From: a phage
Length of the DNA: 64,000 nt
Direction: 5' to 3' (one strand)
Sequence record: PZ445442.1
Shown here: in pieces, positions 16,819-32,615 of the stretch
Layout: every line of letters starts with the position of its first letter
Numbering within the stretch: position 1 is the first letter of the stretch
Program-made: the position numbers and the translations under genes
The notes under the pieces: model-generated
The model's database searches: none
Told to the model about the DNA's origin: nothing
The model's input: the letters and a program-made list of their open reading frames with translations, nothing else

Positions 16819-17010
16819 ATGGTAATTTTTAACCGGGATGGTATCATAGTTAGACAGCACCCGTTCCTTGAATACTATCAAATTGAGCAATGGTGCTACG
16901 GGGATTGCAGTCACTCCTATGGGCAAAGTTGGGGATATCGTACAGTTTTTGAATCCACAGACCTTGACAAAGTAAAACAGAAAGTTTTAGAACTTCTTAA
17001 CAACAAGTGA
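16819..17010 (+). CDS. hypothetical protein
   Basis: Track ORF downstream of the consensus promoter. Confidence 0.5.
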   Translation: MVIFNRDGIIVRQHPFLEYYQIEQWCYGDCSHSYGQSWGYRTVFESTDLDKVKQKVLELLNNK

Positions 17011-17020
17011 GTATCGTGCC

Positions 17021-17353
17021 ATGGTAACATTGGAAAGACGTAAAGCTATTGCCGCCACACTGGCAGACATCTTTTGGGATTGTAATTTAAAATCTACCCG
17101 AAATTGTGGTGCATCTGTAGATGTATTATTCCCACGGCCTACTATTGTTGCAATGGGCAACCTGCTCGATGTGGTATATGGAGCATGGGACAAGGAAGGT
17201 GGATTCTATATCTGGCAACCTGACTACGGGACTTGGAAAGAGGTTAGTGGTTCTTCGGACTTCACTCCTGCAGTGGCTAAAATGGATGGCTGGAAAATCT
17301 ATGTCGGTAACGACATGGAACTGAAAGGCGAAATTGTTTACTGGTTACCTTAA
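17021..17353 (+). CDS. hypothetical protein
   Basis: Track ORF; weak SD. Confidence 0.45.
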   Translation: MVTLERRKAIAATLADIFWDCNLKSTRNCGASVDVLFPRPTIVAMGNLLDVVYGAWDKEGGFYIWQPDYGTWKEVSGSSDFTPAVAKMDGWKIYVGNDMELKGEIVYWLP

Positions 17354-17374
17354 GAAAGTCCAGGAGATAAAGTT

Positions 17375-17620
17375 ATGAACAAAGGGTGGACATTTGTAGA
17401 CGGCGTTAAAAACATGCCTCTAGGAAAGTATATTGTAGCCATGGCAGATGAGAATGGCAAGGTTGATTTCGGAGTTTGCGAGGTTGTTCTTGCAGGATCT
17501 GGTGACTATGCTCACAAAACTGGGATAATTAACGGTCATTTCTACTTTGATTACAACCCTGTTGTGGCGTATATGGCTATGCCAGAGTTCGAGCTCCCAA
17601 AGGAAGGTGCAGATGTTTAA
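17375..17620 (+). CDS. hypothetical protein
   Basis: Track ORF; CAGGAGATAA SD. Confidence 0.55.
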   Translation: MNKGWTFVDGVKNMPLGKYIVAMADENGKVDFGVCEVVLAGSGDYAHKTGIINGHFYFDYNPVVAYMAMPEFELPKEGADV

Positions 17621-17810
17621 GCTTAAATCTGCATGGAACATCGCTGTGGGGGACGAGATCCGTATCCCAGGTGGAAAGACCATTATGAAAATATCTCGTA
17701 TCGAGTACGAAGGTGATCGTGTATTTCATATCTTTGCAGAAGATGGTCGAGAAATTTATATACAGGCAGGCTCTCACATCTATATTCGTAAGAAAGGGGA
17801 GGACAAATGA
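17613..17810 (+). CDS. hypothetical protein
   Basis: Track ORF 17547..17810 trimmed to ATG 17613 (AAGGAAGG SD); overlaps upstream stop. Confidence 0.45.
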   Translation: MFKLKSAWNIAVGDEIRIPGGKTIMKISRIEYEGDRVFHIFAEDGREIYIQAGSHIYIRKKGEDK

Positions 17811-18136
17811 CAGAGATCATCATTTCAACTGCAGGGTATGTATTCCTGACAATCATTGCGCTGACTATTCTGGTGGCGGTGTATGGATTTGTTATCCTTC
17901 CTATTCTTGAGACATTTAGTTTGTGTCGGTGTTGGAGAAAAGCTTACGGTCCACAACCATGGAAGGACTGGCCCCACCTGGTGCGCTTAGCGTTCTCTTA
18001 TGCTTACGATCACTCCAGTAGTGCATGCATAACCGGATACCACGCCCACAACTGGAGCTGGGAAGGGTTGAGGAAATGGAATGTTACAAAGACCATACCT
18101 CTGCGCATGTACAAACCTAAAAACAAAGACAACTGA
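17807..18136 (+). CDS. hypothetical membrane protein
   Basis: Track ORF; N-terminal hydrophobic helix (IISTAGYVFLTIIALTILVAVYGFVILPIL). Confidence 0.5.
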   Translation: MTEIIISTAGYVFLTIIALTILVAVYGFVILPILETFSLCRCWRKAYGPQPWKDWPHLVRLAFSYAYDHSSSACITGYHAHNWSWEGLRKWNVTKTIPLRMYKPKNKDN

Positions 18137-18740
18137 TACTTGAAAATTCCTGGCATATCAAGTATAAGGGGGATTTCTAAAATGGATTTCCTCCTTTTGA
18201 TATTTCACCGGGCTGGATATTTTAAAATTCTTAGAAAATCAGAAAATGGATCGAAAACTAAAATGGATTTTTCAGAGTAGGCGCGACAAGCTGAATAGCT
18301 CATCCTATCGTTTGCACCATATTCCAGACCACCATTATAGATTTCCCACACATGCTAACCTCCCTCTACTAGAACTTCCTCCACTTACCCTTGACCTTCT
18401 ATGGTAACAATCTAACCACTATCTTGAAGTTGCGGTGCAGCTTTCCAGGTACTCGATCTACTTTTCATTTCAGGGCTTGGATTTTCTGAAAATTTTTCTC
18501 GATAAATTTCTCAGTACTCGATCTGTTTTTCGTTTTCTGAATCGGATTTTCTGGAAATCGTTCCGGATCTCGACCTGAAATTTTTGGGGACGAAATCTAT
18601 TTTTCGTTTTCAGAAATGGATTTTTAAAATTTCTATATGGGAATATTTTATGGGGCACTGTTTTATAGGAAATTGTTACGGAGGGTAATTAGCATGCTAA
18701 TTAAATTTATTAAATGCGAGGGATTCTTATTTAGAATTTT
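18137..18740. repeat. non-coding region with iteron-like direct repeats and palindromes
   Basis: Repeated AAATGGAT boxes (about 18181, 18244, 18260, 18612); degenerate 65-75 bp direct repeats starting GTACTCGATCT (about 18449 and 18514) containing GATTTTCTG(A/G)AAAT and TTTTCGTTTTC; 18-bp perfect palindrome TAATTAGCATGCTAATTA (about 18687-18704); inverted repeat ATACTTGA/TCAAGTAT near 18136-18165. Confidence 0.5.
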
Positions 18741-18769
18741 GAATGATAATTATTCTCGTTTGCAGAATA

Positions 18770-18960
18770 ACGGGCAGGCCCGGTGATTGTCTCCCGGCCC
18801 CTGCTGCCCCGGCTTGTTATTATAGTATCACACAGGACAAAGAAGGCAAGGATTTTTTGCATAAATTTTTAAATGATAATGATAACCGTTCTCATTTTAT
18901 GAAGCGCCCATCCCCGGTGGTTGTCTCCCCCGTCACCGGTGCCTGCCGTCCTTTCGATAG
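18770..18960 (+). repeat. two copies of a GC-rich stem-loop element (core GGTG(A/G)TTGTCTCC); third inverted copy at about 28343-28392
   Basis: GGCAGGCCCGGTGATTGTCTCC at about 18776 and CCGGTGGTTGTCTCCC...GGTGCCTGCCGT at about 18916; the reverse complement of both halves occurs at about 28343-28392. CCTGGCGGGG boxes at about 18973, 19040, 19227. Confidence 0.45.
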
Positions 18961-19358
18961 GTATATTATGCCGCCTGGCGGGGCCGCTGTCAACACTTTT
19001 CAAAAAATTTTTCTAACCTGATGCGCTAACCGTTGCAACCTGGCGGGGCCAGCCTGGCAGGTCCGCACTATAAAGTAAACAGCTACAGAAGAGGTACAAA
19101 AATGAAAGGTAATGCTACTCGCCTGGGAAATGTAGTGATTAATGATACGGAAGCTATCGCCCTGGTTGAAAAGGTTATGGCGGGAGCGTTGGAACATAAA
19201 GAAGAGTACGAAAAAAATGGTGGTTAACCTGGCGGGGGGCGGCAGGTGGATTCTATCATAAAAATAATTTAAAATAGTCGTTGACAACAAGGTTAATCAT
19301 GGTATTATTACCCTACAAGGTGAACAACACCGCACTAACCAGTAAAGAGGATAAATTT

Positions 19359-19556
19359 ATGAACGCATACGGGATCAAAGTACGTCGCAACACTCGCCAG
19401 GTGGTCACCAATCAAGTGATTTGCCGGGTGGATGTAACCATCAACAACGGGCAAGGCCTTTATAAATTTCGTCGCGGCCATAGCTATACCCTGCAACAGC
19501 TTAATCGTTGCGCCCTGACAAAAGGTCAGATCAACCACTGGTTTAATAAAAAATAA
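19359..19556 (+). CDS. hypothetical protein
   Basis: Track ORF 19281..19556 trimmed to ATG after AAAGAGGA SD; the track start is the TTG of an upstream TTGACA promoter hexamer. Confidence 0.5.
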   Translation: MNAYGIKVRRNTRQVVTNQVICRVDVTINNGQGLYKFRRGHSYTLQQLNRCALTKGQINHWFNKK

Positions 19557-19620
19557 GTATTGACATACAGTCCGACACCAAATACACTAAAAGCACAAAA
19601 GACACTAAGAGGATAAAATC

Positions 19621-20019
19621 ATGAAAACCACTACCTTTAATTTTGATAATGCAGACTTTTCTTTTTCTGATGTCAAGAACTGCCGCCGTGATCGTGGATT
19701 TTACAAGGCTTATAATCTGGTGGGCCTGGACGATGACAATAATTTGCACGAAGTAGCTGAGATCCGGTATTATGCCGCCGCCAGCGGGAACACTCACTAC
19801 TGCGTGTTTTGGATTCACGACAACAAGAACAATAAGTACGGTTATACTGGCGGCAAGGCGAGCGGTCACGGTTACGATAAAGCTAACGCAGCACTTGAGA
19901 GCGCATTAAATGCTATGGGGATCACTGCCGACGGCTGGATCTACGAAGAAGAGTTTTTGTCGGCACTTGCTGACCACCTGGGCTATAAAAAACACATTGT
20001 AACATGCGCCCACGAATAA
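19621..20019 (+). CDS. hypothetical protein
   Basis: Track ORF; AAGAGGATAA SD; upstream TTGACA-N17-TACACT promoter-like element. Confidence 0.55.
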   Translation: MKTTTFNFDNADFSFSDVKNCRRDRGFYKAYNLVGLDDDNNLHEVAEIRYYAAASGNTHYCVFWIHDNKNNKYGYTGGKASGHGYDKANAALESALNAMGITADGWIYEEEFLSALADHLGYKKHIVTCAHE

Positions 20020-26168: not shown

Positions 26169-26402
26169 ATGATGGAACAAATTAAACGCGCTGAGTCTAT
26201 TAATGGCAATGTGATCTATTTTGTCAGCAAAAACGAAAAAGGCGTACCATATGCGGCGGTAATAGTACAACCTGACGGCGATTATTGGTTTACTGTATAC
26301 GGATCTTATTCTTTCGGGCGTCCGGTTCATGATAGAATTTTGAAAGTAGCAAATCCGACCGGGAAAAATATCACAGCAGAAAAATTTTTTGAAAATAGTT
26401 GA
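26169..26402 (+). CDS. hypothetical protein
   Basis: Track ORF; AAGAGAGG SD. Confidence 0.55.
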   Translation: MMEQIKRAESINGNVIYFVSKNEKGVPYAAVIVQPDGDYWFTVYGSYSFGRPVHDRILKVANPTGKNITAEKFFENS

Positions 26403-26478
26403 CATGACCATATAAGACTGTAATATATAAATCAAAGGGGGGCAACAAGCCCCACCAACCACAAAGAGGATAAAAATC

Positions 26479-28300: not shown

Positions 28301-28329
28301 AACAGGGCTTGCAATGGTCCTGTTTTTTG
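28301..28329 (+). terminator. rho-independent terminator
   Basis: AACAGG-GCTTGCAATGGT-CCTGTT stem followed by TTTTG. Confidence 0.5.
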
Positions 28330-28495
28330 TTATACTTGTTTCACGGCAGGCACCTGGCGACGGGTGGAGACAATCACCGGGCCTGCCTGTCATATAAGAA
28401 CTATAAAAACCGTTGACATCTGCCAGGTGGTGGGGTAACATTTATCTTGAAGGGGCAAAAGTGCCCACACAACAACCAGAAGAGAGGAAAACATT

Positions 28496-29953: not shown

Positions 29954-29971
29954 TTTTTTAACTGAATTATC

Positions 29972-29997
29972 AAGGGGCTTAGGCCCCTTTCTTTTTG
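29972..29997 (+). terminator. rho-independent terminator ending the rightward block
   Basis: AAGGGGC-TTAG-GCCCCTT stem followed by TCTTTTTG. Confidence 0.55.
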
Positions 29998-30599
29998 TCT
30001 GCTCTTCCCCCTACCATAAACGGCCCTACCTGGCAAGTGGAATAATTGACGAGCCATCAATCCCACACACTGTACAAACATACATATAAAATAACTATTG
30101 CATAATTTTTCATTGTGTGGTAGCAGGGCCATTTTTACACATTTTTCCTTCCAAAATTGCACGTAATGCAGCATTTGCACAAAATTTAACCTGATGCATA
30201 TATTCAATAGCTTGTCAACAACTAAAAATCTTTATAAGTCATACACTTACATAACTACAAAAGCGTTTTCTACGTGAAAAATCGAGTATAACTATAGCCG
30301 CCAGATCTCAGAATTTACGTACGCTCGCCATTCTATAGCCTGCTAAGCATTTATTCCAACCATAGAATAACGGAATAGTCAATACCTGCATAAAATAATT
30401 ATTCGTGTAAACTGCATAACATAAATCGGCCCAGGTGTCAACATTTTTCGTAAACAGTCTGGAATTGTCACGTTAGGTTACCATAAGCAGAGAAATCTTT
30501 AGTCGTCTAATGTTTACTGTACGTTACTATATTAACTGAAATCATTAGATGACTAATAGAAAGATAAGAAATAATTAACAATACAATTATTTTATCTGT

Positions 30600-30960
30600 A
30601 ACAATAAGGCAACTATGCAAACGAATGGCATGGCGCGACGGAGTCGCGACATAATATAAAAGCAGTAACCATCACCCCCGTGATAGTTTGTCTGCAAACT
30701 ATTAATCAGATCATAGTTGCCTTGTATTTAGTTAATCATGACATAACAAGCAAGGCAACTATAGATCTTCTAATAGTTGCCCTGCTTTTATATTATGTCA
30801 TAAATTATTAACATGCAAACGAATGGCATGGCTTATAATTTTTGAGAAAATAGTCTATACGTGAACAGTAAGGCATGCAATAGTAACAATTGTTATTGTA
30901 TCCAGTGTGTTGAGTATGCCCAGTATGTCACCATTGTGTCCAGTATGTCAGACAAGTTTT
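30600..30960. repeat. cluster of inverted and direct repeats in the convergent non-coding region
   Basis: 9-bp site GGCAACTAT at about 30608 and 30754, its complement ATAGTTGCC at about 30713 and 30773; 19-bp direct repeat TGCAAACGAATGGCATGGC at about 30616 and 30814; 18-bp inverted pair GACATAATATAAAAGCAG (about 30648) / CTGCTTTTATATTATGTC (about 30782); CCAGTATGTCA x2 at about 30920-30950. Confidence 0.5.
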
Positions 30961-32399
30961 CCTCCTCTTTGTCAAGTGCTGCATGAAAAATTTACAAACT
31001 GGTATGGTAGCATTTTTGCGGCCCTGTTTACATTCAGTAATGTATGTATAATCCTTGTTGTGTGGGCGTTTAGACGTCTAGACGGTTGGAAGTCTACAGG
31101 TCAATATCTAATCTATTGGCTGCTAACTATATCCCACACAAATAGTAAGAAATATGATTGTTATATGCGTAAACTGTAACTCATGTTATCAATCCCTGTA
31201 TGTATCACCAGTGGTGCGCATAATGGGTATTATGTTAAATTGCCCGTAATGATAACTATTCTCACAATGATAGGTATTCTCATTCACCCCAACAAAATAG
31301 GTTGCAAATGTTGTGCCACTGTGTGAACGGCCTCACCTATTAATTTGCCTCACTGCCTCGATATTTGAGAATTATTATAAAAATGAGAAGTATTCCCATT
31401 CCGTCCGCCTGGCAGCACTCCAGTCGCTACGGCTCCTGACAGGGCAGCACTCCTGTAGGTCAGGTCAAAATCGGGGTAGAACTGGACCTGTTCAGATATT
31501 TCTGGCTGACTCTTCAGGTCTGTGTGGGAAAAGCCAACCTCTCCGGCGGGGCAGGGGAGGTAAATTAAAAAATTTACGTGGTGTATGAAGAGCCCTTCAG
31601 GTAAGGCATGTATTATAGGATGAAACCCTCTTCAGGCATGATATTTGTGGGTGTGATATTTGCTGGAAAGCCAGATATGACGGGACTCCCGGCGGGGCAG
31701 GGGTAGTACAGACGGGGAAATATGGGGATGTAGTTGGGGAAATTGATCAGGCAGGTGGGGTATAGGATATGTTACAAGTATGTTAAATATGGAGGTTGAA
31801 TATCTGTAGGATTTGTGTGTAAAATCAAAGACTTAAGTGGTGTTGTGGTATTTTCTATAAATAATTCAAGTTTAATAGGTAATATTTGCCTCTATCCACT
31901 TTGTGTGGTAAACAGATTCAGATGAGATTAGTTTACAAGTGTATACATAATATACAAATTAAAGATACAGGAAACCCCCCTCCCCCTTCGGCTACCATTC
32001 ACCTTTTCCTCTGACTGGTACTTAAACACTTATTCAGACTCTTCAGGTTATCACCCATATATCATATGGCAGTGACTGGTGTCCTCCGGCCCCTCTTTCG
32101 TCACCCGTCCGCTTCGCCATGCTAATGCCATAGCCAAAGGTTCGGTTGTTCACCCTGTTCACTCAGGTGTATCTCCATACCCCTTCAAACCGAAGAGAAC
32201 AGAAAACCCGAATTACTCGGTAAAAGAAAAGAGAAGAACTTAATTTTATCAGGATAGGCAAGAATGTCAAGGCATGACTGCTCACTAAACAAGCAAACAG
32301 TCATGTGTGGGAGGTAAGTGATTGTGGTGGTGGGAAATTTAGTTGAAAGATGTGTTATAGGTGCGCTTCCAGCACTTTAGCCGGGCAGCTAATTGTGTG

Positions 32400-32615
32400 T
32401 CAGTCCAGCGGTTCATCCTCTACTTCACTGAAATCAATGTTCATGGTCTCTTCCCAACCATCGATCTCAGCACAAGAGTGGAGTTCTTTAGGGTTTACTC
32501 CCAAAGCCTCAGCAACAGAGTCTATATTTAACACCTCTGGCAGGTATGATTCATCGAATTCAAGGTAAATCAGGCCACGAGTGTTGTCAGCTCCACCAAA
32601 TATTTCTATCTTCAT
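32400..32615 (-). CDS. hypothetical small acidic protein
   Basis: Track ORF; last gene of the leftward block. Confidence 0.5.
   Translation of the reverse strand: MKIEIFGGADNTRGLIYLEFDESYLPEVLNIDSVAEALGVNPKELHSCAEIDGWEETMNIDFSEVEDEPLD

Follow-up and report, generated by a model that had tools for sequence, protein, structure and literature searches.

A conserved non-coding cassette in Escherichia phage EmilHeitz and its relatives: predicted transcription boundary and candidate replication origin

The gap and its genomic setting

The DNA analysed here (the window) is 64,000 nucleotides long and matches Escherichia phage EmilHeitz (BASEL Bas49, MZ501062.1), an rV5-like Vequintavirus, at 100% identity. 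Window positions equal positions in MZ501062.1 minus 64682; relative to rV5 numbering, the window is reverse-complemented. The locus lies within a long rightward arm that begins at record position 54.9 kb and carries rIIA/B, a helicase, two DNA methyltransferases, a T7-type primase-helicase and a DNA polymerase. The replisome genes lie on the same arm, 8.6-14 kb upstream, where the end of the DNA polymerase gene is the nearest point (8.6 kb). Small hypothetical genes border the locus on both sides. Its counterpart in rV5 is found at ~116.6-117.7 kb, flanked by ORF200 and promoter P195B; the rV5 authors' annotation has ORF199 and ORF198 there.

The earlier note described a 600-bp non-coding region at 18137-18740. 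The region is indeed non-coding, but its right end was placed too far left. The gap extends over 965 bp (18137-19101), and the described feature makes up the left two-thirds of what we call the cassette. Coding and conservation tests were based on an alignment of 11 Vequintavirus genomes (86-100% identity). In these genomes, none of seven candidate open reading frames (ORFs) on both strands of 18137-19021 shows codon-position bias. A coding explanation was rejected, since there is no third-position bias and all candidate ORFs in the gap except bas49_0103 contain frame-breaking indels. A 48-aa ORF on the minus strand with a GGAGG motif is not conserved, and the coding reading of it was dropped. 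Annotators of related records placed differing small ORFs over the gap, or none. The small ORFs annotated across it (rV5 ORF198/199, bas49_0102-0104 and others) are probably spurious.

Parts of the gap are four to six times less variable than the flanking genes. Only 8-12% of alignment columns vary at 18225-18274 (8%), 18500-18549 (overlapping repeat unit R2, 12%), 18575-18624 and 18725-18950, compared to about 50% in the flanking genes. The spacer at 18275-18449 is variable, with changes in 56-92% of columns and indels of 1-2 nt. A sensitive BLAST search finds the whole gap in 114 Vequintavirus records. In other genera, BLAST recognises only ~18700-18836 (73-89% identity), nearly always in unannotated DNA. 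There are no host homologues in 5,426 E. coli genomes, and the sole real match among plasmids is a Vequintavirus genome deposited as a plasmid. The literature we searched contains nothing on this region, nor on origins or small RNAs of Vequintavirinae. Judged from the alignments, it is reasonably shown that the gap is a non-coding, cis-acting cassette under selection, and purifying selection on the cassette is stronger than on the surrounding genes.

Table 1. Features of the cassette and related elements, in window positions. Promoters, terminator and operators are predicted from sequence throughout.
Feature	Position	Strand	Description
Imperfect inverted repeat	18133-18143 / 18158-18168		11-nt arms, 10/11 pairs, 14-nt loop; overlaps bas49_0101 stop codon
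Left box array	18135-18275	+	two degenerate ~81-bp direct repeats and boxes
Variable spacer	18275-18445	+	C 33%, G 11%
Repeat unit R1	18449-18513	+	GTACTCGATCT...TTTTC...GGATTTT...TCGATAAATT
Repeat unit R2	18514-18587	+	GTACTCGATCTGTTTTTCGTTTTCTGAATCGGATTTT...
Repeat unit R3, diverged	18578-18630	+	16-bp hairpin 18580-18617, then GGAUUUUUAA
Least-stable duplex	18570-18760		candidate DNA unwinding element (nearest-neighbour energy)
Perfect 18-bp palindrome	18686-18703		TAATTAGCATGCTAATTA
Degenerate palindromic operator	18712-18732
Weak promoter	18739-18768	+	TTGAAT-18-CAGAAT; by eye, 8/12, below scan threshold
Fur-box-like operator	18742-18760		AATGATAATTATTCTCGTT; overlaps weak plus-strand promoter
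GC-rich box M6, copy 1	18768-18822		core CGGTGATTGTCTCC; conserved
Putative promoter	18819-18849	-	TTGCCT-19-TATAAT; by eye, suboptimal spacer, weaker
Second operator pair	18872-18896		GATAATGATAACCGTTCTC; 16/19 match to E. coli Fur consensus
GC-rich box M6, copy 2	18900-18955		core CGGTGGTTGTCTCC
Early-type promoter	18965-19014 (18993->18965)	-	TTGACA-17-CATAAT, 11/12; A/T-rich UP-like element 18994-19014
Promoter	19281-19308	+	TTGACA-16-TATTAT; restarts rightward transcription; rV5 P195B
GC-rich box M6, copy 3	about 28309-28392 (box 28343-28392)		behind its own promoter

Repeats, boxes and duplex stability

In the left box array, GATA(C/T)TT boxes lie at 18135, 18199 and 18216. The two ~81-bp direct repeats, which the earlier note had missed, pair 18135-18160 with 18216-18241 and 18174-18189 with 18255-18270. 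Boxes repeated four to five times had been reported, and we find four exact copies of AAATGGAT (18180, 18245, 18261 and 18614) as well as three variants (TTGGAT at 18477, TCGGAT at 18542 and CCGGAT at 18565). The 10-mer AAATGGATTT occurs three times in the 64-kb window, each time inside this region. Other genera carry counterpart arrays of GATATTTG and GAAATGGTTTT. The idea that the AAAUGGAU boxes are tRNA-like or a CsrA sponge was abandoned, as Seunavirus (GAAATGGTTTT) does not retain the GGA.

An 8-bp inverted repeat had been noted around 18140. It is present, but its arms are longer, as given in Table 1. It is kept only in Vequintaviruses with the same upstream gene, and as minus-strand RNA it folds no better than shuffled sequences (z = +0.68).

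The direct repeats to the right of the spacer form a 47-nt family. Two to three degenerate copies at 65-75 bp had been described; they exist, at intervals of 65 and 74 bp. GTACTCGATCT occurs without mismatch at 18449 and 18514, but the degenerate third unit starts at 18588 with GACGAAATCTA and not with GTACTCGATCT. The best self-diagonal score is 20 at offset 65, compared to 10.2 +/- 1.1 (maximum 13.5) in dinucleotide shuffles. Five distinct 8-mers recur at least three times (mean 0.27, maximum 3, in 200 dinucleotide shuffles). All features listed in the earlier note are confirmed to be present, and together they lie far above chance.

The reported 18-bp palindrome TAATTAGCATGCTAATTA is perfect. 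Taken alone it is within chance expectation for 64 kb; it is kept in 11 Vequintavirus genomes, where it shows single changes without compensation. It is specific to Vequintavirus, and Seunavirus and Mydovirus have a leftward promoter at the equivalent place.

Classic iterons are 17-22 bp long, and their cognate initiator is usually encoded nearby. In the cassette, direct repeats in the same orientation occur at regular spacing (the three units and the two ~81-bp units), and an A+T-rich, easily unwound segment (18570-18760) lies next to them. The units measure 63-81 bp and are not helix-phased repeats of 17-22 bp. Their internal boxes of 8-11 bp are irregularly spaced (16, 65, 65, 73 and 215 bp). 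The unit cores are short palindromes centred on TCGA, and RNA folding of R1, R2 and the units of PVP-SE1 and CR3 is no better than that of shuffles. Therefore a role at the DNA level, as sites for a binding protein, is favoured.

The segment 18570-18760 belongs to the least stable 0.07-0.24% of the window. Elsewhere, stability is similar or lower only at 30-32 kb, in another non-coding region, and at a few scattered sites. The density of A/T tracts reaches 25 in the 600-bp segments starting at 18101 and 18201, the highest in the window (mean 8.2), and the tracts are biased on the plus strand (13 T-tracts versus 2 A-tracts). The second non-coding region (29960-32400) is more AT-rich, has two motif types in common with the cassette and also contains two exact TGATATTTG boxes. 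As an origin candidate, it is equally good. GATC (Dam) sites are not enriched in the EmilHeitz cassette (6.6 versus 5.4 per kb). By eye, GATC looks enriched in Certrevirus only.

Two clusters of repeats on either side of a variable stretch are also reminiscent of a pac site, where two clusters of boxes for the small terminase flank a variable cleavage zone, as in P1 or SPP1. The clusters at 18135-18275 and 18449-18655 enclose a variable spacer of 170 bp, the DNA is rich in bend-prone A/T tracts, and related GenBank records have arbitrary start points, consistent with permuted genomes packaged by the headful. Known pac sites, however, lie in or beside the small-terminase gene. Small early genes surround the cassette, with the DNA polymerase gene 8.6 kb upstream; there is no terminase gene within ~33 kb upstream or 6 kb downstream, and none is annotated at record 50.0-89.9 kb. 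The leftward promoters and operators described below would also be left without a role. Mainly because of its location, we consider it highly improbable that the cassette is a pac site.

Transcription signals, operators and GC-rich boxes

R3 contains a hairpin (18580-18630) with 16 pairs and a folding energy of -15.9 kcal/mol (z = -4.19); none of 200 shuffles folds as well. Across five distinct sequences, 80 of 80 cells remain paired, and both substitutions pair via wobble. The stem has only three G-C pairs. It includes four or five G.U pairs, which are C.A mismatches on the other strand, and hence the hairpin is specific to the plus strand. A U-run follows directly, as in Rho-independent terminators. 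The hairpin and U-run are probably an intrinsic terminator of the upstream unit.

The early-type promoter 18993->18965, of the sigma70 type and close to consensus, points leftward, against both flanking gene blocks. Its UP element and -35 box are nearly identical to those of a promoter at 26378-26404, and it fits the early-promoter class listed for rV5 and Certrevirus. The weaker promoter 18849->18819 has equivalents in other genera (TTGCAA-17-TATATT in CR3 and TTGATC-16-TATTAT in PVP-SE1). One to three leftward sigma70 promoters occur at equivalent positions in 10 of 10 genomes, at least two of them in 9 of 10. The scan itself finds one in EmilHeitz, one in PcCB7V and at least two in eight of the nine other genomes. 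They adjoin M8 (see below) and M6 on the right; Seunavirus and Mydovirus also have them directly next to the repeat units. In the rightward direction, clear promoters lie mostly at the right edge of the gap, where every genome has them. AT-rich gaps such as that of ukendt also contain several weak matches to plus-strand promoters (9/12).

The leftward promoters lie 50-400 nt upstream of 18570-18760. The predicted succession of promoter, untranslated transcript and A+T-rich element is that of transcript-primed origins. On these predictions it is reasonably shown that the cassette parts two rightward transcription units, with early-type promoters firing backwards into easily melted, repeat-filled DNA.

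The cassette also carries palindromic operators. The stretch that contains the first two (18712-18760) is the part of the gap that is best conserved between genera. The operators cover the -35 box and spacer of the weak rightward promoter, which faces the leftward promoter across M6. We scored the palindromes against GATAATGATAATCATTATC, the E. coli Fur consensus, and they match at 14-16 of 19 positions. No other site in the window equals the 16/19 match at 18875-18893 (0.02 expected). Matches of at least 14/19 cluster at the same relative place in 10 of 10 genomes, from phages of E. coli, Salmonella, Cronobacter, Klebsiella, Pectobacterium, Proteus and Serratia. A palindrome derived from the phage sequences has six matches in the window (0.21 expected), three in the gap and three at 31248-31400, inside the second non-coding region.

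Like enterobacterial Fur boxes, the operators are palindromic, clustered and overlap the -35 box and spacer of a predicted promoter with a 19-bp consensus match, although the overlapped promoter is weak. Unlike Fur boxes, many copies read symmetrical GAGAAT instead of GATAAT. From their sequence, it is equally possible that the operators bind Fur or a phage-encoded regulator. In the literature searched, Fur boxes are not described for strictly lytic phages.

These signals raise the possibility that the cassette is purely a boundary or switch of transcription. Rho-dependent termination on the C-rich spacer together with the hairpin would end upstream transcription, convergent leftward promoters would block read-through, and a regulator on the repeats and operators would time expression of the downstream block. 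Several observations are as expected: a plus-strand-specific hairpin with a U-run, promoters face to face around GC-rich boxes, operators on the weak plus-strand promoter, and, in every genome, fresh plus-strand promoters where the gap ends on the right. In the spacer (18270-18470), just behind the end of translation, GC skew reaches its most negative value in the whole plus-transcribed arm, and the composition is rut-like. Yet this C-rich bias is strong in just 3 of 10 genomes (EmilHeitz, ChuuTotoro and W70), weak in six and absent in Mydo. Similarly, the hairpin is restricted to Vequintavirus, and the units of PVP-SE1 and CR3 have no significant fold. No regulator was identified either. Terminators and rut sites normally do not need three regularly spaced, conserved units of 65-78 bp plus box arrays that recur across genera. 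A pure boundary accounts for the terminator, spacer, operators and opposing promoters, but not for these units. It is the main rival to an origin, and we regard it as somewhat unlikely.

The GC-rich boxes are a further part of the cassette. M6 has three copies in the window, two of them in the gap. Most other genera have a different, extremely conserved GC-rich element of ~100 bp, M8, in the place of the second M6 copy of Vequintavirus. M8 is absent from the 64-kb window. Its sequence is near-invariant, and covariation amounts to a single compensatory pair. Read from the sequence and not computed, the leftward RNA would be G-rich over the GC-rich boxes, a hint at R-loops.

Strong leftward promoters that have no ORF to express could indicate a locus for non-coding RNA. 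An antisense RNA of ~0.7-0.85 kb would run leftward, whole or in processed pieces, and act as a sponge, decoy or mRNA regulator. GC-rich boxes do lie directly downstream of promoters, the third M6 copy lies behind its own promoter and folds at z = -2.7 (28340-28395), and the highly conserved M8 sits at the same position in other genera. At the level of structure the case is different. Neither strand of M6 shows a consensus RNA structure or covariation, the repeat units fold no better than shuffles, and the only significant hairpin belongs to the opposite (plus) strand. Rfam returns no match at E <= 1 for window 17000-20000 and three related loci, M6 and M8 included. No minus-strand terminator was found.

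Type III antitoxins of the ToxI type are tandem repeats of ~36-45 nt beside an endoribonuclease toxin gene. The cassette shows no similarity to them: there is no match at up to 11 substitutions in any locus, the units measure 63-81 bp, and no coding gene adjoins them; this candidate was rejected. An RNA-based function is without structural support, and we consider it very unlikely.

Conservation of the layout and a candidate origin

We compared the cassette to syntenic gaps of ~0.8-1.3 kb in nine further phages: PVP-SE1 and GAP31 (Seunavirus), CR3, KaOmega and PcCB7V (Certrevirus), Mydo, ChuuTotoro, W70 and ukendt, a Phapecoctavirus and hence a member of a different subfamily. The order of modules is identical in all nine. 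Right after the upstream stop codon come GATATTTG boxes (GATATTT type), followed by an array of GAAAT(G)G-type boxes, a variable spacer and three, rarely four, direct units. Palindromic operators with the pattern AATGA(G/T)AATNATTCTCATT come next, two or three in number, then a GC-rich M6 box with the core CGGTGNTTGTCTC, either a second M6 copy (Vequintavirus) or M8 (most other genera), and finally a promoter that serves the following genes in the rightward direction. This layout is common to Vequintavirus, Seunavirus, Certrevirus, Mydovirus, two unclassified Vequintavirinae and one Phapecoctavirus. As far as sequence comparison can tell, the same layout is present in at least seven lineages of Vequintavirinae and in a Phapecoctavirus.

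Seven genomes contain exactly three direct units centred on CTCGATC at a spacing of 63-78 bp, and within the 4-5-kb loci of these genomes CTCGATC hardly occurs outside the gap. W70 has CTTGAGRGG in every unit core. In ukendt, there are three units of ~69 bp with a different sequence. Spacing is kept while cores change in concert, as one would expect if the sites and a phage-encoded binding protein evolve together. The concerted change in W70 suggests a phage-encoded DNA-binding partner.

A search for an initiator led to a gene of ~280 aa next to the gap in other genera (phrog_12959/12463), for which neither Pfam nor PHROG gives a function; tblastn and HMM searches detect no homologue of it in the window. 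The upstream gene of YP-6 is a homing endonuclease. A scan of the collection for three spaced CTCGATC sites was swamped by chance matches.

We propose that the cassette is a replication origin of the T4 oriE/oriF or T7 type, insulated inside a boundary between transcription units, and assign this reading a probability of roughly 0.4. Rightward transcripts from the upstream block would run into the C-rich untranslated spacer and end at the hairpin with its U-run. Leftward promoters would transcribe through the GC-rich boxes and operators into the melt-prone, T-tract-rich DNA at 18570-18760. The repeat units and AAATGGAT boxes would be iterons for a phage-encoded protein. The leftward transcripts may open the DNA or provide an R-loop primer for the T7-type primase-helicase and the DNA polymerase. 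At the Fur-box-like operators, either Fur or a regulator made by the phage would modulate transcription across the cassette. We favour an origin because it joins the deep conservation, the concerted change of the cores and antisense promoters that otherwise lack a purpose.

The comparison to known origins shows both likeness and difference. The primary origin of T7 consists of tandem promoters (phi1.1A/B) followed by an AT-rich region. Likewise, EmilHeitz has tandem promoters upstream of AT-rich DNA in the early region, and a primase-helicase of the T7 type. Unlike those of T7, its promoters are of the host sigma70 type and oppose the flanking genes, and its iteron-like units and palindromic operators are absent from the T7 origin.

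In T4 oriE, an early promoter is joined to iterons at even spacing, and the design of oriF/oriG and oriE is a promoter, an untranslated transcript and an A+T-rich unwinding element with iterons (PMC3016281). In the cassette, early sigma70 promoters similarly fire into the least stable, repeat-bearing DNA. Differences are the length of the repeats (12-nt iterons in T4 oriE, here units of 63-81 bp with sub-boxes), the lack of sequence similarity, and the operators and GC-rich boxes that lie between promoter and AT-rich DNA. We identified no RepEB-like or other initiator.

Iteron origins offer another comparison, for example that of PLE, a non-coding region with semi-palindromic repeats (PMC7145576). 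Here too, direct repeats in the same orientation lie beside AT-rich non-coding DNA; they are semi-palindromic with A/T tracts, and their concerted change suggests a cognate binding protein. In contrast to such origins, no cognate initiator gene was found, and neither the length nor the spacing of the units resembles that of the usual 17-22-bp iterons.

Skew offers no help in locating an origin. The rV5 genome paper used skew analysis to look for one and found only transcription switches, with skew following the direction of transcription. In agreement with the rV5 authors, the GC skew profile of our window tracks transcription and carries no origin signal. Counting against an origin are this lack of a skew signal, the unit length of 65-81 bp, the failure to find an initiator and the rival region at 29960-32400. 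It also counts against an origin that the hairpin, C-rich spacer, operators and opposing promoters can be explained by transcription control alone.

The earlier note had proposed an alternative origin or a regulatory switch region. The switch, or boundary, half of that proposal is borne out by sequence evidence: hairpin and U-run at 18580-18630, C-rich spacer, opposing early-type promoters, operators and the promoter at 19281. The origin half, which we infer, agrees with iteron-like units whose cores changed together in one lineage, with the very low duplex stability and with promoters that point into AT-rich DNA.

The rV5-like phages (Vequintavirinae) and their relatives are widely used candidates for therapy and biocontrol. 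Among them, no other proposed origin or master regulatory site is as concrete or as directly open to testing as the cassette. A bolder and distinctly unlikely version is a hub shared by two phage subfamilies that senses the host and controls replication and early transcription. Fur would report iron status and gate the face-to-face promoters, antisense transcripts would activate an iteron origin, and M6 and M8 would be cis elements or small RNAs of this circuit that have not been described before. Should the Fur-box-like operators prove genuine, they would offer a rare example of a metal regulator of the host being read by a strictly lytic phage.

Boundaries of the cassette

The left boundary of the cassette (the 965-bp repeat-rich non-coding gap) seems to be a hot spot for insertion. 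Homing-endonuclease genes have inserted right at this edge in phages YP-6 and PVP-SE1 (gp204), which belong to two different genera, and the two genes are related (27% identity, E = 4e-18). In YP-6, the insertion has replaced the first box repeat of the cassette.

On the right, the small ORF at 19102-19227 encodes 41 aa in EmilHeitz, where the record carries no annotation for it. Its counterparts in FV3, RudolfGeigy, YP-6 and PMBT16 are annotated as 58 aa (177 nt). Around 19211-19217, an A-run in the EmilHeitz ORF differs from theirs by one base, and there are indels close to the ORF start; either a sequencing error or a true frameshift may be the cause.

Within the cassette, repeat unit R1 contains TCGATAAATT at 18499-18508, invariant in the 11 aligned Vequintavirus genomes. 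This sequence is identical to the H-NS high-affinity motif, an identity that may be coincidental.

Database records carrying the region

Sixteen or 17 GenBank records of the MG0656xx series (for example, MG065646.1 and MG065672.1) are named 'Campylobacter phage', with C. jejuni as the stated host. They are 93-96% identical to the E. coli Vequintavirus region of EmilHeitz; probably the host is wrongly assigned or the sequences are contaminants. PLSDB entry CP057073.1, which is 137,565 bp long and comes from E. coli in cattle faeces, was deposited as a non-mobilizable plasmid. It contains the entire cassette at 92.5% identity and its size matches a Vequintavirus genome. It is probably a phage genome that was co-assembled with its E. 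coli host.

Related elements outside the cassette

The GC-rich box (M6) occurs a third time in the window, bracketed by two predicted tandem rightward promoters within 28309-28441. The RNA of this copy is predicted to fold stably into a hairpin of -23.9 kcal/mol (z = -2.7). Most other genera carry M8, a different GC-rich element of about 100 bp containing ...ACCGGCGATCCACCTTCC...GTTAGCCCCGCCTTTTCGCCGTGGGGTGGCG..., where Vequintavirus has the second M6 copy of the cassette. M8 is nearly invariant across Seunavirus, Certrevirus, Mydovirus, Phapecoctavirus and two unclassified Vequintavirinae, and a predicted leftward sigma70 promoter adjoins it. It has no match in Rfam and was not found in the 64-kb EmilHeitz window.

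Another non-coding region of about 2.4 kb (29960-32400), which the rV5 paper shows as a 'non-coding' box, lies where the two transcription arms converge. Two of its motif types, operator-like palindromes and TGATATTTG boxes, also occur in the cassette, and the window's least stable DNA lies in this region. It is as plausible a candidate for an origin or regulatory region as the cassette.

Coordinates of elements in the EmilHeitz window and in related phage loci (L005, PVP-SE1; L020, YP-6)
Feature	Position	Strand	Remark
Homing-endonuclease gene, YP-6	L020 1-605		
Homing-endonuclease gene gp204, PVP-SE1	L005 1393-1980		
M8	L005 2640-2750; L006 2638-2750		equivalents in L004, L007-L010, L012
Predicted promoter	28309-28336	+	TTGCAA-16-TATACT
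M6 copy 3, core	28366-28378	+	GGAGACAATCACC
Predicted promoter	28413-28441	+	TTGACA-17-TAACAT
Operator-like palindromes	31248-31400		n = 3
TGATATTTG boxes	31639, 31654
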